Position numbers and translations under genes: made by a program. Positions 1,520 to 37,636 of a DNA stretch of 64,000 nucleotides are shown here, in pieces. The stretch's first letter is position 1; each line of letters begins with the position of its first letter. The notes below the pieces were generated by a model. That model did no database searches and was not told the origin of the DNA. It was given only the letters and a program-made list of their open reading frames with translations. Origin of the DNA: Christensenellales bacterium (GTDB lineage: Bacteria > Bacillota > Clostridia > Christensenellales > UBA3700); NCBI GenBank assembly GCA_051883395.1, contig JBJETQ010000002.1:16456-80455 (forward strand). The letters are read 5' to 3'.

Positions 1520-1996
1520 TTACTCTCTATAACCTTGTATAGTTATATCAAACCCCCTGTCGCTATAAGACAACGTTATACTTTTTATCATATTTTGTTT
1601 TGCGTCCAGACTTATGACAACGCTGACGTCAAGATTTTCTTTGCCGATAGCCAGCTTAGAATCTCTCAATTTGCCTTCAAAAAGGTATCCGTCCGCCGTC
1701 TTGGTATAATCTCCTTCAAGATTTGCACTTTTCCAGCTGAACTGCATCTGCTGATTGCTCTCGGCAATTTCCAGTTCCAAAGGATTATAAATTTCCCCCT
1801 TCACGTTGCTGTAAACCACCATATCGTCCTGCATTATTATCGTATCTACCCAACTAAAAGAATCTTCGCCAAGATTATCAAATGCACTTTGCATGGCTCT
1901 CGAATCTTTGGTTACTTCAAAAGTCAACACAGATGCGCTCACCATAACGGCTATTATCATGACAAAAAGCAACAACAATCTACCGTTAAATTTCAT
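1520..1996 (-). CDS. Hypothetical signal-anchored protein
   Basis: 158-aa ORF with the N-terminal hydrophobic segment LLLLFVMIIAVMVSASVL. It overlaps the upstream gene by 11 nt and abuts the downstream gene, so it is operonic. I recognise no family. Confidence 0.55.
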   Translation of the reverse strand: MKFNGRLLLLFVMIIAVMVSASVLTFEVTKDSRAMQSAFDNLGEDSFSWVDTIIMQDDMVVYSNVKGEIYNPLELEIAESNQQMQFSWKSANLEGDYTKTADGYLFEGKLRDSKLAIGKENLDVSVVISLDAKQNMIKSITLSYSDRGFDITIQGYRE

Positions 1997-3842
1997 TTTT
2001 CTTTCTCCTTATAACCAAAGCGGAAGCAACCCCAAGCGCAGCCGCACCCATCATATACTGCAAGCCTATCGCTCCCGACAAGCCGCATGCTTCCTGTGCA
2101 ACGTCGTTTGCCAATTGCTTATAGTCGCTGTATGCGGCTCTGAGTCTTTGCAGATATTCAACGTCCACGTTTTCTTCCATAGTACCTTCGGCAACGTAGC
2201 CAAGGCATCTTTCCACTTCCCGATATGCCGCCACGTCCTTAAATGAAAATCCCGATAAATCAATGTCCTTCATCATATCGTCAAATAGTACGGCGTCAAA
2301 ACCTGTACGTACGGTTTTGCTCAAAATCTTTTCCTTATGGTTTTCATCCCCCAGCAGTTTGACTCTCACCACGTACTCCTGCATAGGAAGCGCTGTTATC
2401 GTATTGCTATCCTGCCATTCTATTCCGTCTATGCTATATACCGTTTTTATATCGCCAAAGTCAGTCTCTATGACCAGAATTTTTATGTCATACAGCCGTA
2501 TTTCAAAATCGTCTATTGCATATTCCGCCTTATCGATATTGATATATGCATTGCTTTGGTTTATTTCAAACGAATAATTATCCTTATCCGCCCCGTAAAA
2601 TACGCAACTCAACTCATATCTTCCTGCGTTGCATGGCAAAACCGTACTTGCGTTGTATTGCACTTCTAAGCTTACGTCATCGCCATCTACTATTCCTGTC
2701 ATCACAGCCTGCGCAATATGCGTTTGACCGTCATATACGACGTTATTGTCAACGATATAATTTACCTGGGCGGGCTTTTTGGTTATCTCGATGCTCTCTT
2801 GTCTGGCGATATAATAGTTCGGATTGTCGCATGTCATCGACAATATATACGTTCCTACGGTCTTTATTTCACTCACAACCACGTCGTTGTATGTTATGAC
2901 CAGCTCGCAGTTAGCGGTATCTGTTTGCTCCGTTTGCATATTATACTTCCAGCCGCTCACTTCGCCCACAACGTTTTTTACCTGTCCGTCGTACTGCAAA
3001 TTCGAAGGAATAACATAATTGACGTTGAGTTCGCAAGGAATAATAGAAAATCTACCTTCACTATCATCAAAAATATAGTCATAGTTTGGATTGCTAACAG
3101 ACAATCCTATCTTATAGCTACCCACGTTTACAGGAGAGCCTTCCAATTCCACGTATGCGCCGTCGACGTACTGATAATAAACAAAACCATACAAATCTTC
3201 GGCAGAATCAGGCGCACTCGACACGTCGGCACTTACCGTAGGCCAAAAACTTTTTCCGTTGTACGTTTTGATTCTATTTGACTGGGACATCTGAACGTTT
3301 ATAACAAATTTCGTTATAGTCAATTGCACAGACGCTTTGCTCGGATCAATATAATAGTTTTCATTATCGATAGCTACATTAATCGTATATTCACCCGCTT
3401 TGCATGGCGGAGTTCCGTCGACTGTTGTTTTTTCATTTATAAAGCTACCGTCTACGTAGCTGATTTTATACCCCATATCATTACCTTCACTATCTTTAAA
3501 AGTAATGACATAGTCTATATCCACGTTGCTGTTAGGGTCATTCCACTTAATCTCAAACTTATACCATTGGTCGCTGACAACACCCTTATAACCAATGGAG
3601 TTATCGTCGTTCAACACGTGTTCGGTCTTGCCGGTAATTATATTATCCTCAGCCGCTATAAAAACAGGTTCAAGCTCTATGACAGGCTCCGCCGTCTGCA
3701 CGACAATTGAGTCAGATACGTCAACCGGCAAATTATCCGTCTGACTTAGGTTATTGCAGCCAAAACAAAGAACAGTTGCACTTATCAGTACAACAGCCAG
3801 CAAAATCAACAATAAACTTATGCTTTTTCTTTTGGTACTCAT
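1986..3842 (-). CDS. Cell-surface protein with repeated MBG-like domains and a C-terminal membrane anchor
   Basis: 618 aa. N-terminal signal-like LLLILLAVVLISATVLCFGC. Repeats carry Y(N/D)G ... NPNY motifs (TYNGKSFWP, LSVSNPNYDYIF, LQYDGQVKNV, MTCDNPNYYIA, VVYDGQTHIAQ, DKDNYSF). The C-terminus is GAAALGVASALVIRRKKNEI. Confidence 0.6.
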   Translation of the reverse strand: MSTKRKSISLLLILLAVVLISATVLCFGCNNLSQTDNLPVDVSDSIVVQTAEPVIELEPVFIAAEDNIITGKTEHVLNDDNSIGYKGVVSDQWYKFEIKWNDPNSNVDIDYVITFKDSEGNDMGYKISYVDGSFINEKTTVDGTPPCKAGEYTINVAIDNENYYIDPSKASVQLTITKFVINVQMSQSNRIKTYNGKSFWPTVSADVSSAPDSAEDLYGFVYYQYVDGAYVELEGSPVNVGSYKIGLSVSNPNYDYIFDDSEGRFSIIPCELNVNYVIPSNLQYDGQVKNVVGEVSGWKYNMQTEQTDTANCELVITYNDVVVSEIKTVGTYILSMTCDNPNYYIARQESIEITKKPAQVNYIVDNNVVYDGQTHIAQAVMTGIVDGDDVSLEVQYNASTVLPCNAGRYELSCVFYGADKDNYSFEINQSNAYINIDKAEYAIDDFEIRLYDIKILVIETDFGDIKTVYSIDGIEWQDSNTITALPMQEYVVRVKLLGDENHKEKILSKTVRTGFDAVLFDDMMKDIDLSGFSFKDVAAYREVERCLGYVAEGTMEENVDVEYLQRLRAAYSDYKQLANDVAQEACGLSGAIGLQYMMGAAALGVASALVIRRKKNEI

Positions 3843-8464: not shown

Positions 8465-10633
8465 TTAATTGTTATAATATTCCGTCTTGATTGCACGTCT
8501 GTTTTCTTTCAGATTCTTCTTGACTTGTTCAAGAGTATCGGCATATTCCTTGCACAAATCAGGGAATACGTCTGCTCTTTGATAGCTCTCGGAAGTATCG
8601 TCAGTCAGGCACATAAACCAGTTCTTTCTCGTCTTGTCAAAGAATTCCGGATTGTCGTTTTTATAGCTCTTGATATATTTCCAAGTCAACAATTCGTTAT
8701 CTCTGATAAACGGCATCTCTGCATAATCGGCTTCGTTGCCCGTCTGAATAGCGTGGTCGGTAGTGGACGTATAGCCTACGACGCTTTCAAGCACGTGGTC
8801 TTTGGTAACGGTATATTGGATAGCTTCTACCTGTTCTCGCTTCATATGCAATATAGGATTGTCCTGTCCGTGTATATACACCGTGTTGGTATCGTCTTCC
8901 AGCAAAGGCATCATCGAAACGCCGTCGATATATCTGTCCACGTCGCTAGGCAAATATACTTCTTTGGCAGGGTTATCGCCCACCTTACCGGTAATGCCGC
9001 ACGCTTCAACGAGAGTAGGATACAAGTCTGCAAGAGTTGCAATCTGTTCTACCGTCTTGGCAACGCCTGGCGTTCCGCTGTTAAATCTACCTTCGGTATC
9101 TCCGTCCCATCTGATATAGAATGGCAGTTTCTGACCGGCATTGTAAGCGGAATACTTGCCGCCCCTAAGCTCGTTGGTAGAACCCTGCAAAGCAGGTCCG
9201 TTGTCGGAAGTAAATACGATTATGGTATCGTCCAATACCCCTTTGGTTTCCAACATTTCAAACAACTTGCCAAGATAATCGTCAAACTCCGTTACGCAGT
9301 CGGCGTAAATACCTGCGCCCGTACTACCCTGATAATCGTAGCCTGCATATACAGGAGCATGTGGCCATGGAGTTGCGTAATAAGCAAAGAATTGATTTCC
9401 TTCGTCTATCTCGTTTTCTATCCAGCTGGATATTTCGCTATGTATAAGTCCCGTTGCATTGCTTTGGTCAAGCTTTTCGGTACCCTGTACAATCTCGTAG
9501 CTTCCGTCCTTTTCCACGGAGTGATAGAACGGCGTCATATCGTTTACGTGGTGCGAACCGTAGAAGTAATCGAAACCTTGATTGGTAGGCAGGTATTGAC
9601 CGTAGTCGCCAAGGTGCCACTTACCGAAGCAGCCCGTACTGTATCCGGCAGCCTGGAATGTCTCTGCAATGGTAACTTCGTCTCCGAGCATACCGTCCAC
9701 GTTTGCGCCCAACTCAATGGAGTTGAATACTCTGGTAGTTGCCAAAGGACTGAACGAGTTGACGGTAGGATACATTACGTTGTCGGCGTAGCCCCTGTAA
9801 GGATAACGTCCCGTCATAAGTGCAAATCTTGCAGGCGAACATACGCTGTAAGAAGAATAGAAATTGTCAAAGTCAGTACCGTTGAGAGCAATACTATCAA
9901 TATTCGGAGTTTCAAAGGCAGGAGTCATACCGGCCTTACGGGCATTGTAACTCGTATCGCCGTAGCCAAGGTCGTCCATAAGAATAACAAGTACGTTAGG
10001 ACCGTTTTCATTTTTATTTACGTTGTCAAGATACTCGTCGTGTCCCTTGCTCATATCGAACACTCTTGGATTGGACCTGAGATTGGTTGTAAACACAAAC
10101 AAAACGCTCATACCCACCAACACTACCGATACTGCGCTGGTTATTCCGGTTTTGAGTTTGCCGCTCCACTTAGCTTTGTCCACGATAAGATACATGGTAA
10201 GCAAAAGCAAAAACGCAGGGCCGCAAATAACAATATTGCCGGCAAGTCGGGTCCAGAAGTTGCCTTCTCCCTGCCACAAAGGATGCTCGGAACTGATAAA
10301 TCCTGTCTTTCCGTCTCCTACAAGCGCACCCCAGCCGGCGTCTGCGCCGTTAAAAATAAAGTAAGTTGCAATACCGAAACTTACGGCAACATAACCTATC
10401 AGATACCACAGATAGAGCTTTCTTTTTACGATTACGCCCAGGCTGATAAGCACAGAACTTATAATCATGTAGATTGCTCCTATCAGGACGATGAGATTAA
10501 GGCCGATAATCCATTGCAACAACATCAACACAACGCCTATGCTGAACATAAGCAAAGGCAAAACCTTTTTGCCCTTGTCGAGTGTTACCGCTCTATAGGT
10601 CTTCTGCTCGATGTTTTCCATATTATCCTGCAT
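8465..10633 (-). CDS. Cys-type (formylglycine) sulfatase with an N-terminal 5-TM domain
   Basis: 722 aa. The first ~190 aa contain five hydrophobic helices. The catalytic domain has LVILMDDLGYGD and the FGly motif SVCSPARFALMTGRY (C-x-P-x-R). Confidence 0.85.
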   Translation of the reverse strand: MQDNMENIEQKTYRAVTLDKGKKVLPLLMFSIGVVLMLLQWIIGLNLIVLIGAIYMIISSVLISLGVIVKRKLYLWYLIGYVAVSFGIATYFIFNGADAGWGALVGDGKTGFISSEHPLWQGEGNFWTRLAGNIVICGPAFLLLLTMYLIVDKAKWSGKLKTGITSAVSVVLVGMSVLFVFTTNLRSNPRVFDMSKGHDEYLDNVNKNENGPNVLVILMDDLGYGDTSYNARKAGMTPAFETPNIDSIALNGTDFDNFYSSYSVCSPARFALMTGRYPYRGYADNVMYPTVNSFSPLATTRVFNSIELGANVDGMLGDEVTIAETFQAAGYSTGCFGKWHLGDYGQYLPTNQGFDYFYGSHHVNDMTPFYHSVEKDGSYEIVQGTEKLDQSNATGLIHSEISSWIENEIDEGNQFFAYYATPWPHAPVYAGYDYQGSTGAGIYADCVTEFDDYLGKLFEMLETKGVLDDTIIVFTSDNGPALQGSTNELRGGKYSAYNAGQKLPFYIRWDGDTEGRFNSGTPGVAKTVEQIATLADLYPTLVEACGITGKVGDNPAKEVYLPSDVDRYIDGVSMMPLLEDDTNTVYIHGQDNPILHMKREQVEAIQYTVTKDHVLESVVGYTSTTDHAIQTGNEADYAEMPFIRDNELLTWKYIKSYKNDNPEFFDKTRKNWFMCLTDDTSESYQRADVFPDLCKEYADTLEQVKKNLKENRRAIKTEYYNN

Positions 10634-10785: not shown

Positions 10786-12213
10786 ATGGAACAGAGCAAA
10801 ATAAAAATAAGCATCGACGCTATGTCCGAAGCAATGACGCAAGGATTTTATAGCAATATATATCTGGTACTTATAGTGGCAATATCCATATTCGGCTTTG
10901 CATTGAAGGCTGAGTTGTTTGCCATGGGTACTCTCATCATACTGATGTCGGCGTGCCTTCTCTTTTGCAAAGACGCAACGCCGTCTTTTGTTACCTTCTG
11001 TTTTATTTGTATGATGCCGCTCAATTTCTACGGAGCTCAAATGGAAGACTTTTTCCATATGTGGTGGGTAGGAATTTTTCTTGTACCTTCGTTTATCATG
11101 CATCTGATACTCTACCCTGTTCCAAGAGTAAAAATGGGAGAGATGTTCTGGCCGATTGCCTTGTATGCGATTGCGCTGCTTGTGGGCGGAATAGGTTATA
11201 TCAGTCCCGAAGATTACTTCAAAATTCCTGCGCTGTATTATACCATCATGTTGGGACCCGGCATGCTGTGCTTCTATATCTTTTATCAGTCTTATATCCC
11301 GGACAAAACCGAGTCGGCAATCGACTATTTTTCAAGATCGATGGTTGCATTGGGAGTATTGATATTACTGATATGGGCGTCTCAGTATTTTATCGAAATC
11401 AAAGCAGGACGAGAAATAAGCATATTTTTTCCTTACCGTCAATTCAAAAACAATCTGGGCAATTATACTTTGCTCACTATGCCTTTTGCTTTCTATCTGT
11501 CTACAAAAAGAAAAAACATTACGTCTGCTGCTCTGTTTATAATAGGAATTCTTCAATATTCAGCCATAGTATTGTCGGCGTGCAGAGGCGGCACCGTTGC
11601 GGCAACCGTTCTCATGCCTTTCATTCTGGTATTTTGTTTTAAGGGTGCGAGCAAAACCAACCGCAAATTATTTGCCGTGTTATTCAGTATATTGGCGGTA
11701 GCTGCCATCATTTTGTTTATCTTCAACTTTGAAACGATTTACAACAAACTATTGGCGCTCATTTCCAACGGCTCGTCGGGCAGAGACAAACTGTATCAGG
11801 AAGCTTGGCGCAACTTCAAAGAACATCCTATCAACGGCGTGGGTATAGGTTATCTTAATCCCGAAGTATATCCGCTCAAAGATATGTCAATGTTCTGGTA
11901 TCATTCGACTTTCTTCCAGGTTATCGGCTCTATGGGACTTATCGGACTGGGCGCCTGGTTATATATGACTATCGTAAGGCTAAAAATATTATTCAAAAAA
12001 GATTACTTCAACATCTTTGCTTTGTTTGCATTTCTCGGTTTCGAAGCCTACTCCATGGTCAACACGGGCGACTTTTCGCCGTTGCCTTTCGTAACCATGC
12101 TGACGTTCATGCTGACTCTTTGTTCCAAGCACAACGCATTGCGCAAGGCTGAGCAAAGCCGCTCGGCTGCAAATGAGCCTTCACCGCTGATTGCACAAAT
12201 ATCAAATCAATAA
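10786..12213 (+). CDS. O-antigen ligase/Wzy_C-like polytopic membrane protein
   Basis: 475 aa with more than 10 hydrophobic segments. The loop SGRDKLYQEAWRNFKEHPINGVGIGY is typical of the O-antigen ligase family. Confidence 0.6.
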   Translation: MEQSKIKISIDAMSEAMTQGFYSNIYLVLIVAISIFGFALKAELFAMGTLIILMSACLLFCKDATPSFVTFCFICMMPLNFYGAQMEDFFHMWWVGIFLVPSFIMHLILYPVPRVKMGEMFWPIALYAIALLVGGIGYISPEDYFKIPALYYTIMLGPGMLCFYIFYQSYIPDKTESAIDYFSRSMVALGVLILLIWASQYFIEIKAGREISIFFPYRQFKNNLGNYTLLTMPFAFYLSTKRKNITSAALFIIGILQYSAIVLSACRGGTVAATVLMPFILVFCFKGASKTNRKLFAVLFSILAVAAIILFIFNFETIYNKLLALISNGSSGRDKLYQEAWRNFKEHPINGVGIGYLNPEVYPLKDMSMFWYHSTFFQVIGSMGLIGLGAWLYMTIVRLKILFKKDYFNIFALFAFLGFEAYSMVNTGDFSPLPFVTMLTFMLTLCSKHNALRKAEQSRSAANEPSPLIAQISNQ

Positions 12214-27317: not shown

Positions 27318-27555
27318 GTCAATCATTTGCCCTTGCCTTTTCTATAAGCGCATTATTTTGCGACTATATAAGCAATCTGCGCCACCCTTTTGCTCCCGAG
27401 TAATTTTGTCTTCCACCAACCAAACTCTGCCGTCCTGAGCCGATAATTTCAGTCAATCATTTGCCCTTGCCTTTTCTATAAGCGCATTATTTTGCGACTA
27501 TATAAGCAATCTGCGCTGCCCTTATGCTCCCGAGCAATTTTGTCTTCCGCCAAGG
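27318..27555. repeat. Tandem duplication, period 134 bp, two copies (about 103 bp conserved per copy)
   Basis: The first 66 nt of each copy (gtcaatcatttgcccttgccttttctataagcgcattattttgcgactatataagcaatctgcgc) are identical at 27318 and 27452. The next ~37 nt differ at 5 positions, after which the copies diverge. Confidence 0.9.
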
Positions 27556-27570
27556 CTCAAAAACATTCAA

Positions 27571-27616
27571 AAAAGCCGATAAAAATCGGCTTTTTTGGCC
27601 GATTTTTTTATCGGCT
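27571..27616 (-). terminator. Double-hairpin intrinsic terminator after the 1417-aa gene
   Basis: The minus strand reads AGCCGAT-aaaaaaa-ATCGGC, then GCCGAT-ttttt-ATCGGC followed by TTTTTT. Confidence 0.75.
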
Positions 27617-27622
27617 ATTTTG

Positions 27623-30600
27623 TCAACTTATCGTCAGACCGGTATCTTCTACGTAGATAAATCCGCCATAGTTGCTACCGCTTATCAGCGTATTTCCGCT
27701 GTGTCTTACGCCGTAACCGTCCGCTTTGACTACGTTGTCAAGCACGTCCTTGATAGTCCACTTGATAGGAGTGTCCAATGTGAGTGAACCGACCTTTTCG
27801 ATACTTATGATTTCCGTTTCCATAATCTTGGTTTTGAGAGAATCTGTCGAATCGAACAACGTGGTGTCTCCTTCTTCTACGGTGCGGTTACTGTTGATGA
27901 TGTCTTGGAGAATCTTTTGCTGCTCGGCTGTCATATTGTTGAACATCAACGTAGTCGTGTATTCGGTTGAGTCAATATCGATAAATGCCGTAACGTCTAT
28001 ACTTTCAGGAAGCAAGGTCGTGGTCTTGCTCATAAGCCCCGAAGTCTTGATATTGAGTGTCAGCAACATATACGACTCACTCTCGAACGTCATACCACTA
28101 AAACCGTCTTTGACTGCCGTGGCATTGATATAGTCAGGATTGAACATCAAAACCTGCTTATAAGTTACGTCCGAAGTGCCAAGTCCCAAAGCCGACGATA
28201 CGCCGCTGCTACCGTCTTCATTGTCAAGCAACGCTGCCGCAATATTACGGTCGCTGATTTCCATAGCGACTTCTCCGTGTGGAAGCGGAGTTGCAACATA
28301 TTGTGCGCTGACCTGTTCCGACGACATCTTGTCGTCAATGGCATTGATATTATCCTGGCCGACGACGTCCGTAAGAGTGAACAACGCCTTCATCATACCT
28401 TGGAAATCTGCTTCGCTAGGTTTTACCCCGTCGCTGTAAATGTTTTTGATTGCCAGTCCGTATATAGTGGAGAAGGTAATCGTACCGCCCTGTGTGTTGG
28501 CATCGATATCTGTGGTGGAATACTCCATCTGAGTTCCTGCCGTCATTTCGCCGAGTTTGTTCTTGACCTTGTCGGAAGCGTCGGCATTGATGTCGTCAGG
28601 CGTTACAGTCTTATCTGCGACAATCTTGAAAAGATTGCAGAATACGTCCAAATCGGCATCGTCCATATCGTTGATGGTAAAGGCGGTACATACTTCGCTC
28701 GTACCTACTTTTGACAAGTCTACGTCTACGACAATTGCCACACCGCTTGGCAGCAGAGTCGCATATTTACCTGCGCTTTCGGAAGAAATATTTGCCGTAA
28801 ATACTATGCGCATCGTGCTGGCGGACGTTATGGTCAGACTTGTCATCGATACGTGTTCCAATCCTTCTGCACTTATCGTAACGTCTCCGCTGAGCAGACG
28901 GGCAAGTTCACCGCCGCTTGCTTGCGGTTTGAGAGCCACGCCGTCGTTGACGCTTCTGGTATCGGCAGCCATTGCCTGACCGTCTATCATCGTGGCATAC
29001 TTGGTTGTGATTGTGGTAATCTGCTCAGATACGTCGCCAGTTGTGTTTATCGGTGTTTTGAGATAATATTTACTGTTGATTTCTTCGGCAAATCTGCTCA
29101 TATCCGTTGCGATATTGCTTTGCGACAATTCTTCCGGAATCACGTTGACTTTTTGCAATACGCTTCTCAGTTCCACATTGGACGGTTTGGACAATTCTCC
29201 TGCGTAAATCTGACTGATTGCTATATCGAATACCGTAGTGTTGAGATTCATCACTCCGTCGCCAAACGTTATATCGATAGTTCTGTCGGCTACTATGTCA
29301 TCCATAAAGCCATAGATGTTGTCTTCGAGAGTTTGTCTTACTCCTTCTGCCGTAACTTCATTTCCGCCAAGTTTGGTAGCCACGCTGAAAAAGTTGTTCA
29401 TCTGCTCGGTGGTCATTCCGTCAATATCGAAACTTGCACAATCGACGTCGGCGCCTTCAAGCTTTTGTCTCAGCAACGCCGTATCTACCGTTACGTTGAC
29501 GTAAACCTGTCTTGGTAACAATACGGAATATTTAGCATTTTCGCCAGTCAGCTGTATCTCGCCGCTGAGTTGCATTGTCATCTGTGTTGCGGTGATACGG
29601 GTAGAAACTACCTTGATGTTTTTCATGACGCTGACAACGTTGTCGAGCTTTCCGCTGGACTGGATAAGAAATCCCAGTTCTTCCTGAGAGAGCGACGGTT
29701 TCAACTCGTCGATGTCGGTAGTATCGGTTGCCATTTTGTTGACGTCTATACTCGTCTCAAAGTTGTTTTTGATAGTAGTTACGCTGTTGAACAGAGCTGC
29801 ACCGTCGGAAGGGTCCAGCGTGTCGGTAGTGATATAGTATTTGTTTTCCAACTCGGTTACAAAGCCGACTGCGCCGACGCTTACGTTGACGGTATCTGCT
29901 TCAAAGGTATATGCCGCTTTCAACATGTCGTGCAATTGAGCGTCGTCGACAACAGGGTTATTGCTTTCGTCTTTGAGCATTCCCAGTCCCGTCGCCGTCT
30001 CGAATATCGACGGCAATATACAGCCTGTGCTTGTAAATTCTATATCCGTACCGAGTTTTTCGTTGATTTTGGTAAGATTTTCTCTCACGCTGTCTTCAAG
30101 TTTTGTAGTAAGCTCCGATATATTGAAAGAACTTACGTCGATGCCTAGTCCCGAACACAGTTTGTTGAGATTGTCAAGCAATTCCAACGTCTGCTCTTTG
30201 GTACAGTTGTTGATACAAATCTCCGTCTCTTTTTCGGCGTCGGTCAGACTTAGTCTTGCCTTGATAAATATTTGTTCAGGCAATATCTGCGGCGCAAATA
30301 TGGCAATAAGCGAACCTTCTTCCGCCTTGCCTGCAATACTCTCCAATACGTCGACTGCAATGACTACTTCCAGCATTCCTTCCGTCTGGTCATAGCTCAT
30401 ATTGAGTATCGTTATAGGAAAAGCCGACGCTTCGCTGCTGCCTGATGAGAGCTGACTGTTGAGCAAACCTGCCATAGCCAGATAGGACATCGAAACTTTG
30501 TGATTGTCGGCAATATAACTGCCGCTGTCGTAATTGAGCGTAGCAAGATTAATCTTTTCGAGCATAGCGTCGTCCTGCATCAAGCTCGTTACACTACTGA

Positions 30601-31876
30601 AAACGTTGTCGGTGGTGATAAGGTCGTCGCTGTTATCAAATCCGTATTTTGCAGTAAAGTCATCTATAAATTCTTCTACGTTCTGATTGCGCAACTGAGT
30701 GGTATATTGTGCAACGCCGACTGCGGTAGCATCAGGCAACTTGAAGTCCCTGATGAGATACAAAAACTGTGCTTCGCCCAAGTCTACGTCCAATACGTTC
30801 ATAAGCGCTTCCACAGGTTTCATATCACAACCGGAATCGACGAATGATATTGGTATTACTTCGTTGAGTTTGGCAACAACGTCTTTGACGGCATTGTTGA
30901 TTGTCTGCATTATTGGCACTTCTCCGCCCACCACATCGTTGAGCAGATTTACCAGTTTATCCATCAATTCTTTGTCAATCTGATTGATGACGACGCTTGC
31001 AGAACCGTTTTCGTCATTAGGTCTGACGTCCATGCTTACAAAAATCGTCTTTGGCAACAAACCCGACACAAACGAAGGTACGGAAGTGTTTTTCAACAGC
31101 TCGGGAGCCAGCGACGCCACGTCGATTTTGATGGTGAGAGTAAGAACTACGTCTTCCAGCTTTGCACCCGCCACGCTCTCAATGATAATCTGCGAAATAC
31201 TTACGTGTTGGAGATATTGCGCATATTGGGATATCGACGCAAGCGGAGACGACTGGTCTGTCTCTCCTTCGGCAGACTGTGTGATATAATATTGGAATAC
31301 GCTGTCTATCAAAGCGGCGAACTGTTTGTCTGTTACTTCGAGAATATTCTCCTCTCCGCTGTAAGTAGCCAATGAAGAAAAATCGAACTCTATACTTTTG
31401 AGAAGTGCGTCAAGAGCCTCGTTGCCGGTACCTTCGGGAGCAGATTCCGCCAAAACCATTGGCGTAGATTCTTCTTCTTCCGATTTGCTTGAAGACGCTG
31501 CGTCCAGTATGTCGATTATGTCAATATCGCTGTCTTCCGACAAATAGGTCTTTTTCTTGAATTCGGTATAAAAATCGTCCAAATCTGATTGGGAATACGG
31601 ATTGGTAACGATTTCGCTTTCGTTGGCTTTGTACAAAGAAGTCAATACGTTGAAGGCTTCGGATATACTAAGTCCTACCTTTGGCTCGACGTATTTTCCC
31701 CAAGCCCATATTCCGCCGCCTGCAATACCTGCTACAAGCACCACAAAAATTACTACCAAGGTAACGATACAAGATAAGCAACCGTGGCTTTTCTTTTCTC
31801 GCTTTGGCTCCTTTTTGTTCTTGCGTTTGTCGTTTGGCGTTACGTCGTCCAAATCTATTTTGTTTTTCTTTGCCAT
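27623..31876 (-). CDS. Giant single-pass membrane protein with five internal repeats of an unrecognised module
   Basis: 1417 aa. A Lys-rich N-terminus precedes one TM helix (CIVTLVVIFVVLVAGIAGGGIWAW). Five modules share a beta-like strand, then (L/I)LP-x3-(hydrophobic/polar alternation)-D, then (I/F)N(N/D)(M/C)(T/D)xE/D...L. RBS GGGAG lies 7 nt upstream. Confidence 0.8.
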   Translation of the reverse strand: MAKKNKIDLDDVTPNDKRKNKKEPKREKKSHGCLSCIVTLVVIFVVLVAGIAGGGIWAWGKYVEPKVGLSISEAFNVLTSLYKANESEIVTNPYSQSDLDDFYTEFKKKTYLSEDSDIDIIDILDAASSSKSEEEESTPMVLAESAPEGTGNEALDALLKSIEFDFSSLATYSGEENILEVTDKQFAALIDSVFQYYITQSAEGETDQSSPLASISQYAQYLQHVSISQIIIESVAGAKLEDVVLTLTIKIDVASLAPELLKNTSVPSFVSGLLPKTIFVSMDVRPNDENGSASVVINQIDKELMDKLVNLLNDVVGGEVPIMQTINNAVKDVVAKLNEVIPISFVDSGCDMKPVEALMNVLDVDLGEAQFLYLIRDFKLPDATAVGVAQYTTQLRNQNVEEFIDDFTAKYGFDNSDDLITTDNVFSSVTSLMQDDAMLEKINLATLNYDSGSYIADNHKVSMSYLAMAGLLNSQLSSGSSEASAFPITILNMSYDQTEGMLEVVIAVDVLESIAGKAEEGSLIAIFAPQILPEQIFIKARLSLTDAEKETEICINNCTKEQTLELLDNLNKLCSGLGIDVSSFNISELTTKLEDSVRENLTKINEKLGTDIEFTSTGCILPSIFETATGLGMLKDESNNPVVDDAQLHDMLKAAYTFEADTVNVSVGAVGFVTELENKYYITTDTLDPSDGAALFNSVTTIKNNFETSIDVNKMATDTTDIDELKPSLSQEELGFLIQSSGKLDNVVSVMKNIKVVSTRITATQMTMQLSGEIQLTGENAKYSVLLPRQVYVNVTVDTALLRQKLEGADVDCASFDIDGMTTEQMNNFFSVATKLGGNEVTAEGVRQTLEDNIYGFMDDIVADRTIDITFGDGVMNLNTTVFDIAISQIYAGELSKPSNVELRSVLQKVNVIPEELSQSNIATDMSRFAEEINSKYYLKTPINTTGDVSEQITTITTKYATMIDGQAMAADTRSVNDGVALKPQASGGELARLLSGDVTISAEGLEHVSMTSLTITSASTMRIVFTANISSESAGKYATLLPSGVAIVVDVDLSKVGTSEVCTAFTINDMDDADLDVFCNLFKIVADKTVTPDDINADASDKVKNKLGEMTAGTQMEYSTTDIDANTQGGTITFSTIYGLAIKNIYSDGVKPSEADFQGMMKALFTLTDVVGQDNINAIDDKMSSEQVSAQYVATPLPHGEVAMEISDRNIAAALLDNEDGSSGVSSALGLGTSDVTYKQVLMFNPDYINATAVKDGFSGMTFESESYMLLTLNIKTSGLMSKTTTLLPESIDVTAFIDIDSTEYTTTLMFNNMTAEQQKILQDIINSNRTVEEGDTTLFDSTDSLKTKIMETEIISIEKVGSLTLDTPIKWTIKDVLDNVVKADGYGVRHSGNTLISGSNYGGFIYVEDTGLTIS

Positions 31877-31900
31877 AAGCTATCTCCCATAAGCTATCTC
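31873..31900. repeat. Perfect 14-bp tandem duplication spanning the start codon of the giant gene
   Basis: ccataagctatctc occurs twice (31873-31886 and 31887-31900). On the minus strand this is GAGATAGCTTATGG x2, giving two ATGs 14 nt apart in different frames. Confidence 0.9.
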
Positions 31901-32103
31901 AAAGAGATTTTTCTATAATATAATATATTATACCACCGCTTGTGTGGTTTTTCAATATAAAAGGGACATATATTTTTTCGCGCGCTCGTTTATAATACGT
32001 GCAAACGCCCTATTTTGTTGATTATCGAAGACAAAATTTTTTTGAAAAAATATTAATAGAAGATCTTGGCTTATAAAGAATAAAGACGTAACAGAGTTGT
32101 AAT

Positions 32104-32531
32104 TGTTGCCTTTTGACACAGTATTACAACGTATATACGATACGAAGCTTGCTTGAAATACATAATACCACGGCTTGACGGCTCGGCTACGAGTAAAACG
32201 AGAAAATCGGCTAATTGGATTGAGATTGCCACGCTCGCATAGCTCGCTCGCAATGACGTAGCACTTGACGGTGGAGATGCGAGTAAGACAAGGAAAAAGG
32301 CAACTTTATCAAAGCATACGTACTAGGCGTACGTGAGCAAGAAAAGTTGCCTTTTGACACAGTATTGCGTGGTATATCCGTTGCCGACTTTTAAACAACT
32401 GCGTATTTAGACTTGATGGCTCTGATGCGAGTCAGGCGAGAAAAGCGGCAATTTTATCGACACGAGCGTACTTAGCGTACGTGAGTGAGAAAAATTGCCG
32501 CTTGACAAAGCATAACGACGCATATCCGCCG
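32104..32531. repeat. Array of degenerate ~90-150-bp repeat units containing long hairpins
   Basis: Units start with cttgaYgg at 32174, 32264 and 32412. The tail motif ttgacaNagNat...tatNcg occurs at 32113, 32355 and 32502. Long hairpins span 32296-32354 (AAAGGCAACTTT/AAAGTTGCCTTT) and 32443-32503 (AAGCGGCAATTTT/AAAATTGCCGCTT), each with an inner ACGTAC...GTACG stem. Confidence 0.8.
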
Positions 32532-35500
32532 TCAGAAATTGATAATGCCGCTGAACACTTCCACAGACGTACCCTTCAACAATACGCCGTCGTCGGTATA
32601 TCTGACTACCATATCGCCGCCTGATTGTTTGACGGTGATATCGGTATACTTTGGCAAGTAGCCGTTGAGAACTGCGCTGACCACTACCGCACAGCTTCCG
32701 CTGCCGCTGGCAAACGTTTCGCCGCAACCCTTGTCCCAGATACGAGCTTTGACGGTATGTCTGTCGATGACTTTTGCAAATTCGACGTTGGTTCGCTCTG
32801 GGAATATGCTGTCGTATTCCAGTTGGGAGCCGAGTTTGGATATATCTACGTTGTCAAGATGTTCTACAAACAATACGCAATGCGGATTGCCCATAGACAG
32901 GACGTTGAGCAGGTATTCCTTTCCGTCTACCGTGTAAGGAACGCCGATTGCGTTTTTGCCCGACAATTTGACAGGAATCTGCGCCGGTTTGAGTACCGGA
33001 GTACCCATATTGACGGTCATATACATAGCTTCTCCGTCCTGCGTCTTGATTTTGATGTCTCTGATGCCGGTAGGAGTTTCGACGGTGATGTCTAGTTTGT
33101 TGACTTTGCGGTTGTCGTAGAGATATTTTGCCACGCCGAACAAACCGTTGCCGCATACCGCTCCCTGCGAGCCGTCGCAGTTGAAAATACGCATTTTGGC
33201 ATCTGCTATCTCCGACTTTTCGATGAGAATAATGCCTTCCGCTCCCACTCCGAAATGTCTGTCGGACATTCTTACGGCAACGCCTTCCGGATTGTCTATG
33301 CTCACACCGTCCAGACAATCGAAGAAAATTCTGTCGTTGCCTGCGCTGTGCATTTTGACAAATTTGTGAGCCTGTTTGCCTTTGCGCAGCTTGTTGATGT
33401 CTACGAGTTCGGTATTATATTCGCTGTATCTGCTCATAAGACAGTTGGCAACGGCGTTGGCAGTATCTATTGACGTAAGACAAGGTATAGAACGTTCTAC
33501 CGCCTTTCTTCTTATCTTGACGCTATCACGGGTGGGAAGCTTGCCTTTGGAAGACGTGGAGATGATGTAATCTATCTTTCCGCTCTCGATGAGAGTAAGG
33601 TTGTTGTGTTCCATATTCTGATGTATTTTGTCCACCGTTACTACTTCCAAGCCCCTTTCTCTCAATACTCTTGCCGTTCCTTTGGTGGCGTAGAGAGTAT
33701 AGCCCAAATCTTCAAACTTCTGCGCAATATCTCCTATCTCCGCCTTGTCCTGATCTCGTACTGTGATGAATATTCCGCCCTTTTTCTTCATGCGGTATCC
33801 CGCCGCAACCAAACCTTTGAACAAAGCTTCTTCCAGCGTGTCAGCCAGTCCCAATACTTCTCCCGTTGACTTCATCTCAGGTCCTAACTGGGTATCTACG
33901 TTGACGAGCTTTGCAAATGAGAATACAGGAACTTTGACGGCAACGTAATTGGACTTAGGATACAGCCCTGTGCCGTAACCCATATCGGACAACTTTTCTC
34001 CAAGGATACATCTGGTGGCAAGGTCCACCATTGGCACGCCCGTTACCTTGCTGATATAAGGTATCGTACGTGAACTTCTTGGGTTAACTTCTATAACATA
34101 CAGTTCTTCTTCATAGATAAGGTATTGAATATTGACGAGTCCGACGGTATGCAGATTGATGGCAAGCATTTTGGAACACTCCACTATTCTTGCCAGCATT
34201 TCGTCGCTGAGATTCCAGGAAGGATAGACGGCAATCGAGTCTCCCGAGTGTATACCTGTTCTTTCGATGTGTTGCATTACTCCCGGAATAAGAATGTCTT
34301 CTCCGTCGCAAATTGCGTCTACTTCTATCTCCCGTCCCATAAGATATTTGTCTATAAGAACGGGGTTTTCTATCTTCTGAGAGAGTATTACGTCCATATA
34401 TTCGATGACGTCGGCGTCGGAATGGCAAACGCACATATTCTGACCGCCAAGCACGTATGACGGACGCAACAAGGTAGGATAACCTATCTTGTTGGCCACG
34501 TCCAAAGCTTCTTCTTTGGTCATTACTGTATAGCCGACAGGACGTTTGATTTGCAGTTTTTCAAGCAATTCGTCAAAGAGTTCTCTGTCTTCCGCCATAT
34601 CGATATATTCCGCCTGCGTGCCGAGAATTCTGATGTTTTTCTCCCTGAAAAGTTTGGTAAGTTTGATGGCTGTCTGACCGCCGAACGCAACCACCACGCC
34701 GTCCGGCTTTTCGGTGTTGATGATATTAAGCACGTCTTCGTTGGTAAGCGGCTCGAAGTAGAGTCTGTCTGCCGTGTCAAAGTCGGTTGATACGGTCTCG
34801 GGATTGTTGTTGACGATGACTACTTCGTATCCTTTGCGTTTGAGCGCCCATACGCAATGTACGGAAGCGTAGTCAAATTCTACGCCCTGACCTATACGGA
34901 TAGGACCGCTGCCGAAAACGATAACTTTCTTTTTGCCGTTGGAATGAGCTTTGATAAATTCTTCCGCTTCGTTTTCGCTGTCGTAGGTAGAATAGAAATA
35001 CGGCGTCTGCGCAGGAAACTCTGCGGCGCAGGTGTCAACCATTTTGTAAGAAGCATGGATAGGTCTGGTTATCTTTTTGCCGCTTATTCTTTCGATAGAA
35101 GAATCCAAAAATCCTATCTTTTTGGCTTGCAGATAGAGTTCGTCGTCAAGTTGTTGTGTGGCAAGCGCTCTTTCCATATCGATAATGTTGGCTATCTTGT
35201 TGAGAAACCATCTGTCTATTCTCGTCTTGGTGTGAATTTCGTTGACGGTTACTCCCCTTCTTAGCAATTCGTATATGACAAAAATACGTTCGTCGTCGCA
35301 AGAGAGCATTTTGTCCTGCAATTCCATATCGCTCATTGCCGCAATTTTTTTGTTGTAGAGAGTATCCATCGATATTTCCGCTCCCCTGACAGCCTTCATA
35401 AGCGCCTGCTCAAAGGAAGAACCGATGGACATTACTTCGCCCGTGGCTTTCATCTGAGTACCGAGTTGACGGCTGGCATAGAAGAATTTGTCAAACGGCC

Positions 35501-36578
35501 ACTTAGGAAATTTGACTACTATATAATCGACGCTTGGCTCGTTGCAGGCGTAAGTGCAACCCGTAACCGAGTTTCTGATTTCGTCAAGGGCGTATCCTAT
35601 GGCAATTTTGGTGGCAACCTTGGCTATCGGATAGCCCGTCGCTTTGCTGGCGAGCGCCGAACTGCGGCTCACTCTCGGATTGACTTCAATGACGGCATAC
35701 TGCATGCTGTCGGGGTGGAGAGCAAACTGAACGTTGCAACCGCCTTCGACTTTGAGTGCGTTGACTATTTTGAGAGCAGCGCTGCGCAACATTCCGAATT
35801 CTTTTTCGGACAAAGTAATTGCGGGAGCGACGACTATACTGTCGCCGGTGTGTACACCGACAGGGTCGACGTTTTCCATACTGCACACGGTGATGCAGTT
35901 GCCAAGAGAATCTCTGATGACTTCAAATTCTATCTCTTTCCAGCCGCTGATACACTTTTCGACCAATATCTGATGGATAGGGCTAAGGCGCAATCCGTTT
36001 TCTGCTATATCTTCAAATTCTTCCCTGTTGTGTGCAATGCCGCCGCCTGTGCCGCCTAACGTAAACGCAGGACGAATGATGACGGGATAACCGATTTGCT
36101 CTGCTACCATTACGCCGTCGTCCATAGTGTTGACGACTTCGGACGGAATGACGGGTTCATTGATTTGGGCAAGGGTATCCTTGAAACTCTGTCTGTCTTC
36201 CGCTCTGTCTATCGTCTCGGGATTAGCACCCAGAAGTCTGACTCCCATCTTGTCCAAAAAGCCTTCTTTTGCCAACTGCATGCTCAGCGTAAGCCCCGTC
36301 TGTCCGCCGAGAGTGGATAGCAGGCTGTCGGGACGTTCCTTTTCGATAATTCTTTTGACGGTGGTGAGAGTCAGCGGCTCGATATAAATTCTGTCTGCCA
36401 CCGCATTGTCGGTCTGAATTGTTGCCGGATTGGAATTGACAAGCACGACTTCGAGATTGTCTTCTTTGAGCGCACGACACGCCTGCGTTCCTGCGTAGTC
36501 AAATTCCGCCGCCTGTCCGATGACGATAGGTCCCGAACCGATAACCATTACTTTGTGTAAATCTTTGTTGAGTGGCAT
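32532..36578 (-). CDS. carB: Carbamoyl-phosphate synthase large subunit fused to a C-terminal DapF-like (diaminopimelate epimerase fold) domain
   Basis: 1348 aa. Residues 1 to ~1070 are colinear with CarB, with two ATP-grasp halves and an MGS-like tail ending NKLRKGKQA. The last ~277 aa (nt 32535-33368) carry DapF motifs FVKMHSAGND, NCDGSQGAVCGNG, SMGNPHCV and DKGCGETFASGSGSCA. Confidence 0.85.
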   Translation of the reverse strand: MPLNKDLHKVMVIGSGPIVIGQAAEFDYAGTQACRALKEDNLEVVLVNSNPATIQTDNAVADRIYIEPLTLTTVKRIIEKERPDSLLSTLGGQTGLTLSMQLAKEGFLDKMGVRLLGANPETIDRAEDRQSFKDTLAQINEPVIPSEVVNTMDDGVMVAEQIGYPVIIRPAFTLGGTGGGIAHNREEFEDIAENGLRLSPIHQILVEKCISGWKEIEFEVIRDSLGNCITVCSMENVDPVGVHTGDSIVVAPAITLSEKEFGMLRSAALKIVNALKVEGGCNVQFALHPDSMQYAVIEVNPRVSRSSALASKATGYPIAKVATKIAIGYALDEIRNSVTGCTYACNEPSVDYIVVKFPKWPFDKFFYASRQLGTQMKATGEVMSIGSSFEQALMKAVRGAEISMDTLYNKKIAAMSDMELQDKMLSCDDERIFVIYELLRRGVTVNEIHTKTRIDRWFLNKIANIIDMERALATQQLDDELYLQAKKIGFLDSSIERISGKKITRPIHASYKMVDTCAAEFPAQTPYFYSTYDSENEAEEFIKAHSNGKKKVIVFGSGPIRIGQGVEFDYASVHCVWALKRKGYEVVIVNNNPETVSTDFDTADRLYFEPLTNEDVLNIINTEKPDGVVVAFGGQTAIKLTKLFREKNIRILGTQAEYIDMAEDRELFDELLEKLQIKRPVGYTVMTKEEALDVANKIGYPTLLRPSYVLGGQNMCVCHSDADVIEYMDVILSQKIENPVLIDKYLMGREIEVDAICDGEDILIPGVMQHIERTGIHSGDSIAVYPSWNLSDEMLARIVECSKMLAINLHTVGLVNIQYLIYEEELYVIEVNPRSSRTIPYISKVTGVPMVDLATRCILGEKLSDMGYGTGLYPKSNYVAVKVPVFSFAKLVNVDTQLGPEMKSTGEVLGLADTLEEALFKGLVAAGYRMKKKGGIFITVRDQDKAEIGDIAQKFEDLGYTLYATKGTARVLRERGLEVVTVDKIHQNMEHNNLTLIESGKIDYIISTSSKGKLPTRDSVKIRRKAVERSIPCLTSIDTANAVANCLMSRYSEYNTELVDINKLRKGKQAHKFVKMHSAGNDRIFFDCLDGVSIDNPEGVAVRMSDRHFGVGAEGIILIEKSEIADAKMRIFNCDGSQGAVCGNGLFGVAKYLYDNRKVNKLDITVETPTGIRDIKIKTQDGEAMYMTVNMGTPVLKPAQIPVKLSGKNAIGVPYTVDGKEYLLNVLSMGNPHCVLFVEHLDNVDISKLGSQLEYDSIFPERTNVEFAKVIDRHTVKARIWDKGCGETFASGSGSCAVVVSAVLNGYLPKYTDITVKQSGGDMVVRYTDDGVLLKGTSVEVFSGIINF

Positions 36579-37636
36579 TATTTATTCTCCTTTGTCAAAT
36601 TGATAAATTGATCGTATATAAAATCGGTGGCAATCGGTCCGCCGTTGACGCCGGGCAGAAACTCGGTGGAGATTGCCCTGTAATCGTCGTATTGCAAACC
36701 TTCTACGCTTGCGTCGTTGACGTTGACGAAGGTAGGATGAAGCCCCTTTGCATCGCTTACGTCAATGTCGGTATTATGATTTTGATAAGTTACAAATAAG
36801 CGACCTGTATCGAGTTTTTTGGTAGGTTGATTGCCGTGATGTCCGTATTTCATTTCGACAATCTTTGCTCCGCATGACATTGCCATGAGCTTGTGTCCGA
36901 GACCTATGCCGAGCATAGGCAATTTTGTTCCTATCTGTCTGATGGTATCTATCACGCTTTCGCAATCTTTCACTCTATCGCTGCCTGCCGACCAGACTAC
37001 TCCGACAGGATTGCACACCATAATTTCCTGCACGCTACTGTCTGCCGACATTATTTTTACTTTCATGCCTTTATCTGCCAATGCTTCGGCTATATCGTAG
37101 GTCTCGCCCAAATCGACAAGACATACCGTTGCACCGCTGCCCATTTCTTTGCCTGCCTTGGCGCTCTTTTTGCTCGCCAGCGAAACCGTAGGAGTGTAAT
37201 TTTTCAACAGTTTCTCCTGTTCATTGTCAAGGCTTGGCGAAGTAGTGATGAGCGCATTGACGCAACCGTTGTCTCTGATGACTTTGGTGAGCATACGGGT
37301 ATCCACCCCCTTGAAACCGACTATTCCTTTGCTCTCCATAAAATTGTCGATAGCTCCGACGCTCCTGAAATTGGAAGGTTTGTCGCACACTTCTCTGACT
37401 ATTACGGCTTTGACGTGGCATTGTTTGCCTTCTACGTCGTCGTTGACGCCGAAATTGCCGAATGAAGGAAAAGTGCCGACAACGAATTGTCCCTGATAGC
37501 ATTCGTCAGTGAGCAACGTCATATCGCCGCCCATGGCGGTATTGAAAACAAGCTGTCCCACAACTTGTCTTTTTGCTCCGAAAGCCGTGCCTTCAAAGAC
37601 CTGGCCACTTGCAAGATACAAATAAAGTTTGTCCAT
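36578..37636 (-). CDS. carA: Carbamoyl-phosphate synthase small subunit homologue lacking the glutaminase catalytic triad
   Basis: 352 aa with a typical CarA N-domain (FNTAMGGDMTLLTDECYQGQFV...). The GATase region reads LGIGLGHK where GICLGHQ is expected, and STEFLPG where FQGHPE is expected. Its stop overlaps the carB ATG (TAATG). Confidence 0.8.
   Translation of the reverse strand: MDKLYLYLASGQVFEGTAFGAKRQVVGQLVFNTAMGGDMTLLTDECYQGQFVVGTFPSFGNFGVNDDVEGKQCHVKAVIVREVCDKPSNFRSVGAIDNFMESKGIVGFKGVDTRMLTKVIRDNGCVNALITTSPSLDNEQEKLLKNYTPTVSLASKKSAKAGKEMGSGATVCLVDLGETYDIAEALADKGMKVKIMSADSSVQEIMVCNPVGVVWSAGSDRVKDCESVIDTIRQIGTKLPMLGIGLGHKLMAMSCGAKIVEMKYGHHGNQPTKKLDTGRLFVTYQNHNTDIDVSDAKGLHPTFVNVNDASVEGLQYDDYRAISTEFLPGVNGGPIATDFIYDQFINLTKENK

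Follow-up and report, generated by a model that had tools for sequence, protein, structure and literature searches.

A putative membrane-anchored envelope protein of Christensenellales with five tandem copies of a domain unmatched in the family libraries searched

Several kinds of large, anchored surface protein come near to the product of the gene analyzed here, which lies on the reverse strand of a 64,000-nt stretch of Christensenellales DNA (the window; all coordinates follow its forward numbering) and encodes a protein with five tandem modules behind a single transmembrane (TM) helix. Ebh of S. aureus, with FIVAR-GA repeats, and SasG/Aap, with G5-E repeats, resemble it in their large extracytoplasmic tandem modules, their anchor at one end, their acidity and a repeat number that varies between lineages, and the role that we infer for our protein is likewise one of reach, spacing or adhesion. 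They differ in that the protein has no FIVAR, GA, G5 or other Pfam match, in that its ~257-aa module of mixed alpha/beta structure is far bigger than their repeats, and in that its anchor is an N-terminal TM helix, neither an LPXTG signal nor a C-terminal TM segment. YueB/EsaA/Pip (YhgE/Pip) proteins of Bacillota also extend a long ectodomain from an N-terminal TM helix past the wall of a monoderm cell, but they carry a C-terminal TM cluster and a YhgE/Pip match in Pfam/NCBIfam, whereas our protein has one TM helix and no match. S-layer proteins anchored through SLH or CWB2 domains share with it an acidic, Ser/Thr-rich and Cys-poor composition and a gene that is monocistronic and whose promoter and terminator are strong; our protein has no SLH or CWB2 domain, its codon bias is average and there is no sign of a lattice. 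Among archaeal S-layer proteins, a single TM helix is known as a membrane anchor. Finally, TcpC/VirB8-like proteins of the NTF2 fold (PDB 3ub1) combine an N-terminal TM anchor with tandem alpha+beta domains, and their order of helices and then an antiparallel sheet is grossly similar and recurs among our weak Foldseek matches; however, this likeness is statistically insignificant and comes with no profile match and no conjugation context, and those proteins have two ~100-aa domains against the five large modules here.

Based on our findings, we propose that the gene encodes a protein of the envelope or surface that is elongated, anchored as a type II membrane protein, non-enzymatic and built from a new domain family, a reading to which we would give about an even chance. 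A basic head and one TM helix would hold the protein in the membrane with its N-terminus inside, and a very acidic ectodomain of 1357 residues would project outward as five tandem ~257-aa alpha/beta modules in one elongated chain. The conserved membrane-proximal modules 1-2 would form a conserved contact within the envelope. Modules 3-5, distal, evolving faster and duplicated or lost from one species to another, would face outward and determine how far the molecule reaches, and they could act in adhesion, spacing or shielding. What is new is the domain family; modular anchored surface proteins are a familiar kind with many uncharacterized families, and the protein brings no new biological principle and so far no sign of a new mechanism. 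Christensenellales are gut bacteria that are heritable and associated with health. Almost none has been cultured, and little is understood of their envelope, of which the 154-kDa protein would be a conserved single-copy component. Its repeat domain is without a counterpart in Pfam, NCBIfam and the PDB, and a new domain model would cover 164 clusters that have no family assignment and are called “hypothetical” where they are named. The family offers a candidate lineage marker or surface antigen and a concrete target for structural and envelope studies.

The coding sequence at 27623..31876 (-) is complete, with an ATG start and 1417 aa plus a stop codon (153.6 kDa), and the list of open reading frames (ORFs) confirms that it is the longest in the window, as an earlier reading made from the DNA letters alone (the sequence-only reading) had stated. 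The protein is identical to ACI4MI_00205, a “hypothetical protein” of a Christensenellales bacterium from a metagenome-assembled genome (MAG) at NCBI, and since omega (dN/dS) is 0.08-0.18 in orthologue pairs, the gene is a real coding gene. Its Lys-rich, presumably cytoplasmic head (aa 1-32; 31781..31876 (-)) has 12 Lys+Arg against 6 Asp+Glu and an isoelectric point (pI) of 10.0, and aa 1-37 are disordered in the AlphaFold2 (AF2) model, with a predicted local distance difference test score (pLDDT) <50. Next comes the single TM helix, a type II, N-in anchor (aa 33-59; 31700..31780 (-)): the Kyte-Doolittle plot over 19 residues peaks at 3.04 at aa 33-51, the next peak beyond aa 1-80 is 1.55, and AF2 places a helix at aa 35-67, over this segment. 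The single-pass topology and Lys-rich head of the sequence-only reading thus hold, and the Kyte-Doolittle plot gives no hydrophobic segment at the C-terminus. The ectodomain is very acidic (pI 4.15, net charge -119), with Ser and Thr making up 18.7% of its residues and Cys occurring only 8 times. Motif searches found no LPXTG, LPXT[AGSN], NPXTN or LAXTG anywhere in the protein and no lipobox, and Pfam gave no match to SLH, CW_binding_2 (CWB2), Ig or MBG; the previously noted lack of LPXTG, SLH, Ig-like and MBG signatures is borne out.

All 15 motif strings that had been reported, three in a fixed order for each of five modules, are present, at aa 243/271/297, 501/528/555, 766/783/818, 1022/1038/1068 and 1270/1286/1312. 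Because these positions lie 248-265 aa apart, the module is ~257 aa long and not 200-230 aa as first estimated. Module 1 (aa 60-337; 30866..31699 (-)) lacks the N-terminal beta-hairpin of the others and holds the largest share of family-invariant residues. Module 2 (aa 338-591; 30104..30865 (-)) is delimited by its hhalign matches to modules 3 and 1 and by its secondary-structure pattern, module 3 (aa 592-848; 29333..30103 (-)) by Smith-Waterman and hhalign matches to module 4, with a pLDDT of 85-93, and module 5 (aa 1105-1354; 27815..28564 (-)) by the same two methods against module 4, which itself (aa 849-1104; 28565..29332 (-)) was also modelled alone as aa 849-1111. A non-repeat C-terminal tail (aa 1355-1417; 27626..27814 (-)) lies beyond all module matches; it is 66-84% identical in close orthologues and poorly conserved further out.

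A BLASTP comparison of the protein with itself returned no off-diagonal high-scoring segment pairs, and it was replaced by shuffle-controlled Smith-Waterman alignment and profile methods. Against 200 shuffles, the Smith-Waterman z-score is 15.3 for modules 3 and 4, 9.9 for modules 4 and 5, and 3.4-4.4 for the pairs 1-2, 2-3 and 2-5; some pairs score below 2. Profiles built from orthologues and compared by hhalign match at 99.4% (modules 3-4), 96.2% (4-5), 95.6% (2-3), 93.2% (1-3) and 82% (1-2), all in register, so that the chain of matches joins all five modules. A hidden Markov model (HMM) seeded on modules 3 and 4 alone detects modules 1, 2 and 5 in the expected register (i-E 2.5e-8, 5e-3 and 2.5e-7, respectively) and, when iterated, marks out five modules in our protein, as many in the homologue P0016, and four each in P0018 and P0019. 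Twenty modules from five proteins, aligned with MAFFT, share an invariant Pro in an “LLP” motif, and the Asn of an “IN” motif is at least 90% conserved among them. The five-module repeat is real, and its similarity survives the kind of statistical comparison that had been proposed as a check.

Two AF2 models describe the module. The first, of module 4 (aa 849-1111) with the 20-module alignment as input, reached a pLDDT of 82.8 and a predicted TM-score (pTM) of 0.71; the second, of aa 1-1111 with an alignment of 28 full-length homologues, reached a pLDDT of 76.9 and a pTM of 0.57, with modules 3-4 mostly at 85-93. In both, each module consists of a long linker helix, a short beta-hairpin, a bundle of ~6 helices, a four-stranded antiparallel sheet and two helices. 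This secondary-structure pattern is common to modules 1-4, with the TM helix standing in place of the missing beta-hairpin in module 1. The three motifs of the sequence-only reading correspond to strand 2 of the sheet, to “LLP” with strand 3, and to strand 4 (“IN”) with the helix after it. Predicted helices at aa 322-340, 586-608 and 843-861 cross the module boundaries, which accounts for the ~12-residue overlap of neighbouring HMM matches and points to a continuous, elongated chain. The models therefore suggest that the modules are strung into one elongated body, the last helix of each being common to the next. Of additional note, Cys pairs occur in module 2 (aa 554/558/574; about 30153-30215) and module 4 (aa 1063/1080; about 28635-28688), where one Cys immediately precedes the “IN” strand and a second follows 16-20 residues on, in the next helix; the equivalent positions are empty in modules 1 and 5, and module 3 has the first one only. 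These pairs could be candidate intramodule disulfides.

No library that we searched recognizes the module. With Pfam-A 2025, the best match of the whole protein is FAS_N at E = 0.014 (16 bits against a cut-off of 23.1) and none is above threshold; NCBIfam 20.0 gave 0 families for the whole protein and PHROGs v4 gave 0 families, and the only PADLOC 2.0 match, Cas12c at 12.7 bits, is noise. When 20 modules were searched singly against Pfam at E <= 5, no family recurred, and three distant giant members of the family gave 0 Pfam families. Likewise, precomputed Pfam domains are listed on none of the homologues returned by our homology searches. Among PDB sequences, neither phmmer nor our A2 and A4 family profiles found anything. 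The structural check that had been proposed gave only noise: the best Foldseek E-values are 0.35 (single module) and 0.23 (four modules) against the PDB and 0.056 against BFVD, with none at 1e-3 in either database. A catalytic or known-domain signature was found in none of the libraries, and a literature search found nothing on the family. As far as these libraries show, the ~257-aa module represents a domain family that had not been described before, and the earlier description of it as unrecognized stands. Since the PADLOC match is noise, PHROGs returned nothing and a scan of IMG/VR viral contigs found no relative, we rejected a defence-system or phage origin.

The wider family came to light only through an exhaustive profile search. 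Two alignment-based, word-indexed homology searches returned mostly close relatives and reached no further, the first adding nothing and the second only kin of its first sequence. The A2 profile, run over 1.84 billion representatives, gave 164 clusters at E <= 1e-3, 123 of them at <= 1e-10. Our protein scores 950 bits over 5 matched stretches against this profile, in which its own modules are included. Family members have 1-14 matched module stretches and reach 3896 aa, and 158 of 178 sequences have a single TM segment within the first 120 residues, most of the others looking like fragments. Our protein shows the family features, namely an N-terminal single TM helix, a module matching A2, the LLP Pro and the IN Asn. 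When modules are typed against five positional profiles, 1-2-3-4-5 is the commonest architecture (21 proteins); module 1 nearly always comes first, and expansions arise by duplication of modules 3, 4 and 5, as in 1-2-3-3-4-5 and 1-2-3-3-4-5-5. The suggestion that homologues differ in copy number is thus confirmed, and it is modules 3-5 that are duplicated or lost.

When GTDB species were scanned, each represented by one genome, 37 genomes matched, with a single locus apiece; the scan relied on two peptide patterns and so implies no absence elsewhere. All 37 are MAGs whose labels read Christensenellales, Christensenellaceae, Christensenella or “Clostridia bacterium”, one of them being Candidatus Ornithoclostridium faecavium of the family Christensenellaceae. 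Names in the records (HGM, MGBC, faecavium) point to animal guts as the habitat. The gene, seen so far only in Christensenellales/Clostridia genomes, may have been inherited vertically, a view that we hold with middling confidence.

Selection on the gene was estimated from six closer species pairs within the family, since the comparison of the window with its sister species is saturated at synonymous sites (pS about 0.7) and dN/dS from it was set aside. Against the omega of 0.08-0.18 given above, flanking genes show 0.00-0.20 with a median of about 0.06, and the highest value in any sextile of the gene is 0.31. The gene is under purifying selection with relaxed constraint. It diverges fastest in its neighbourhood, with identities of 69% against 73-94%, 43-45% against 52-88% and 28% against 40-79% for the surrounding genes. 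Along the protein, residues invariant in 28 homologues are concentrated at aa 59-626, and identity to distant homologues is 33-38% in module 1 and drops to 15-23% by module 5. In codon usage, the effective number of codons (ENC) is 48.9, which ranks 14 of 34 window genes, and GC content at third codon positions is typical for the window. Translational selection is visible in pfk (ENC 38.6). These values indicate that the gene is native and that its product is probably not extremely abundant.

From this evidence, a putative structural cell-surface protein is probably what the gene encodes. The sequence-only reading had seen a variable surface or envelope component, and one half of this fits: the N-terminal anchor and acidic repeats agree with an envelope or surface protein. 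The other half, hypervariability in an antigenic sense, does not, since the gene is single-copy, syntenic and under an omega far from diversifying, albeit evolving faster than its neighbours; a role in the spore fraction is likewise without support. Several points weigh against our proposal. The words structural and surface are drawn from architecture and evolutionary pattern, and no cell-wall-binding, adhesin or lectin domain was found in the protein. The extended rod shape is a putative one, suggested by the predicted models. Moreover, omega comes close to 1 in no segment and thus gives no evidence of the diversifying selection expected for a tip strongly exposed to host or phage.

The alternative that survives best, though unlikely, is that the modules are ligand-binding alpha+beta cones or cups of an NTF2/SnoaL-like or lipid-transfer-like kind, forming a chain of pockets that captures hydrophobic or small molecules or passes them across the wall. 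The weak Foldseek matches are enriched for NTF2-like proteins and SnoaL cyclases, KSI-like proteins, Mtr2 and TcpC, and also for the lipid binders AsterA, Ups1, LprG, Ttg2D and CETP, and the topology of the module, in which helices come before a four-stranded antiparallel sheet, would allow such a pocket. However, none of these matches rises above noise (E >= 0.23, probability <= 0.3, TM-score <= 0.36 on the target). The family-conserved residues of the sheet, the LLP Pro and the IN Asn, look structural, and hydrophobic and polar residues alternate along the strands, which is the usual pattern of a two-layer alpha/beta sandwich. Nor is any transporter or lipid-metabolism partner conserved beside the gene.

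Slightly less probable is that the protein is a membrane-anchored, S-layer-like or outer-layer protein, building an extra envelope layer that lies behind the atypical “Gram-negative” look of Christensenella, which has no outer membrane. Its very acidic, Ser/Thr-rich and Cys-poor composition would suit this, as would a monocistronic gene that has an extended -10 promoter close to consensus and ends in a double terminator, conserved in single copy in the 37 Christensenellales/Clostridia species genomes. Christensenellales stain Gram-negative without outer-membrane genes, and C. minuta is reported to stain in this way and to have a Gram-negative-type wall, yet to have no genes for lipopolysaccharide or BamA (PMC11448272). 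The average codon bias, an indirect measure of expression, stands against it: where pfk shows translational selection, an average ENC makes our protein unlikely to be among the most abundant. In addition, the protein gave no match to SLH, CWB2 or any other domain that anchors S-layers, and nothing indicates that it forms a lattice. A bolder version of our own proposal seems similarly improbable to us, namely that the module is a new fold and the protein a membrane-anchored stalk, its length tuned by module duplication, which organizes an extracytoplasmic compartment or outer layer in Christensenellales as a bacterial counterpart of archaeal membrane-anchored S-layer stalks.

A conjugation or secretion scaffold of the TcpC/VirB8 kind, with an N-terminal TM helix and tandem NTF2-like domains, is very unlikely. 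TcpC (3ub1), which is itself N-terminally anchored with tandem alpha+beta domains, and a chain of the R388 type IV secretion system (8rtd_Y) do appear among the Foldseek matches, but these are weak (E 0.96-1.5, probability <= 0.18), and the Pfam models TpcC and VirB8 match none of the 20 modules even at E <= 5. No genes for a type IV secretion system, relaxase or coupling protein lie near the gene, which instead sits in conserved housekeeping synteny in the 37 species (carAB-dapF, purF, asnA, trkAH, pfkB-like and rumA-like genes), and viral contigs hold no relatives; the gene context largely refutes this reading. That the repeat is illusory, a compositional similarity or chance motifs in a non-functional or mis-called ORF, has next to no probability, since the empty BLASTP self-comparison and the few pairs with z below 2 are outweighed by z-scores of 15 and 10, the in-register hhalign chain (82-99%), the modules found with the profile of modules 3 and 4, the 164 homologous clusters of the same architecture, an omega far below 1 and confident, congruent AF2 models.

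The DNA around the gene contains the elements that the sequence-only reading had pointed out, a double terminator, an upstream spacer with repeats (655 bp, between the gene and carB-dapF) and a 14-bp duplication, although they take on a different meaning here. A sigma-70-type promoter-like site (TTGAAA-17-TATAAT with an extended -10 TG, 11/12 matches) lies at 31927..31955 (-) and is kept in the sister species L001, L002, L003 and L006. Directly after the stop codon, at 27559..27622 (-), two overlapping GC-cored hairpins with T/A runs resemble a bidirectional terminator. With its own conserved promoter and terminator, the gene is monocistronic. The exact 14-bp tandem duplication (GAGATAGCTTATGG x2; 31873..31900 (-)) spans the Shine-Dalgarno sequence and the start codon. 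Its first copy provides the Shine-Dalgarno GGGAGA upstream of the true ATG and also opens an out-of-frame upstream ORF of 11 codons (MGDSLWQRKTK*) that overlaps the true start. Since the duplication is private to the window genome, its sister species having a single GAGGT-N7-ATG, it is no hallmark of variability.

The upstream spacer repeats, with a unit of ~118 nt in two full copies and one partial copy, lie at 32084..32528 (-). Each full copy folds as a long hairpin with a U-run (-38.7 and -31.7 kcal/mol; z -3.75 and -4.3), and the two differ by compensatory stem changes. They are partly kept in L003 and L006, and one copy is 90% identical over 103 nt in L003, above the adjacent coding sequence. 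Rather than a feature of variability, they are probably tandem intrinsic terminators after carB-dapF or a local hairpin repeat element. On the other side, between the terminator of the gene and the start of a GH36-like gene, a 102-nt direct repeat occurs in two copies (27318-27419 and 27452-27553), 95% identical and spaced at 134 nt. It has no significant RNA fold, and sister genomes keep only a ~32-nt core of it. One possibility is that the repeat represents a duplicated promoter or operator for the GH36-like gene. Rfam has no family for either flanking repeat region, and the flanking features carry no recognized signature of surface-protein variability.

In the window, carA and carB-dapF lie upstream of the gene and the GH36-like gene, a P-type ATPase, RadC and AKR genes downstream, an order kept in L001-L007; purF and asnA are also among the neighbours in this clade. 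In 30 more distant loci, where neighbours were named by reading sequences and not by domain search, divergent TrkA/TrkH-like genes or an SGNH-hydrolase-like gene precede the gene, and a PfkB-like kinase, a small protein of 133-147 aa and a RumA-like methyltransferase follow it. Since these conserved neighbours appear to be housekeeping genes, we take the arrangement as synteny, neither a functional operon, which we rejected on this ground, nor a mobile element. Another recurrent “neighbour” (C22) was discarded as a spurious antisense ORF. The small conserved protein (cluster C2, L008-L037) follows the PfkB-like kinase in 25 loci and is absent from the window neighbourhood.

Other observations concern the window at large. 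carB is fused in frame to a C-terminal DapF (diaminopimelate epimerase) domain (32532-36578 (-), 1348 aa), and the fusion appears conserved, the corresponding cluster (C6) having a median of 1348 aa in 10 related loci. In the same genomes, carA (36578-37636 (-)) is far less conserved than carB-dapF (73% vs 94%, 52-53% vs 88% and 40% vs 79%), an asymmetry in rate that is unusual for two subunits of one enzyme. At 1986-3842 (-), a 618-aa protein with an MBG_3 domain match (Pfam E = 1.3e-10) is a putative surface or adhesin-type protein unrelated to the five-module gene. A 722-aa protein with a Sulfatase-family domain (8465-10633 (-)) is encoded divergently to a Wzy_C (O-antigen ligase-like) membrane protein (10786-12213 (+)), and the two, as genes for envelope polymers, may bear on the unusual wall of the lineage.

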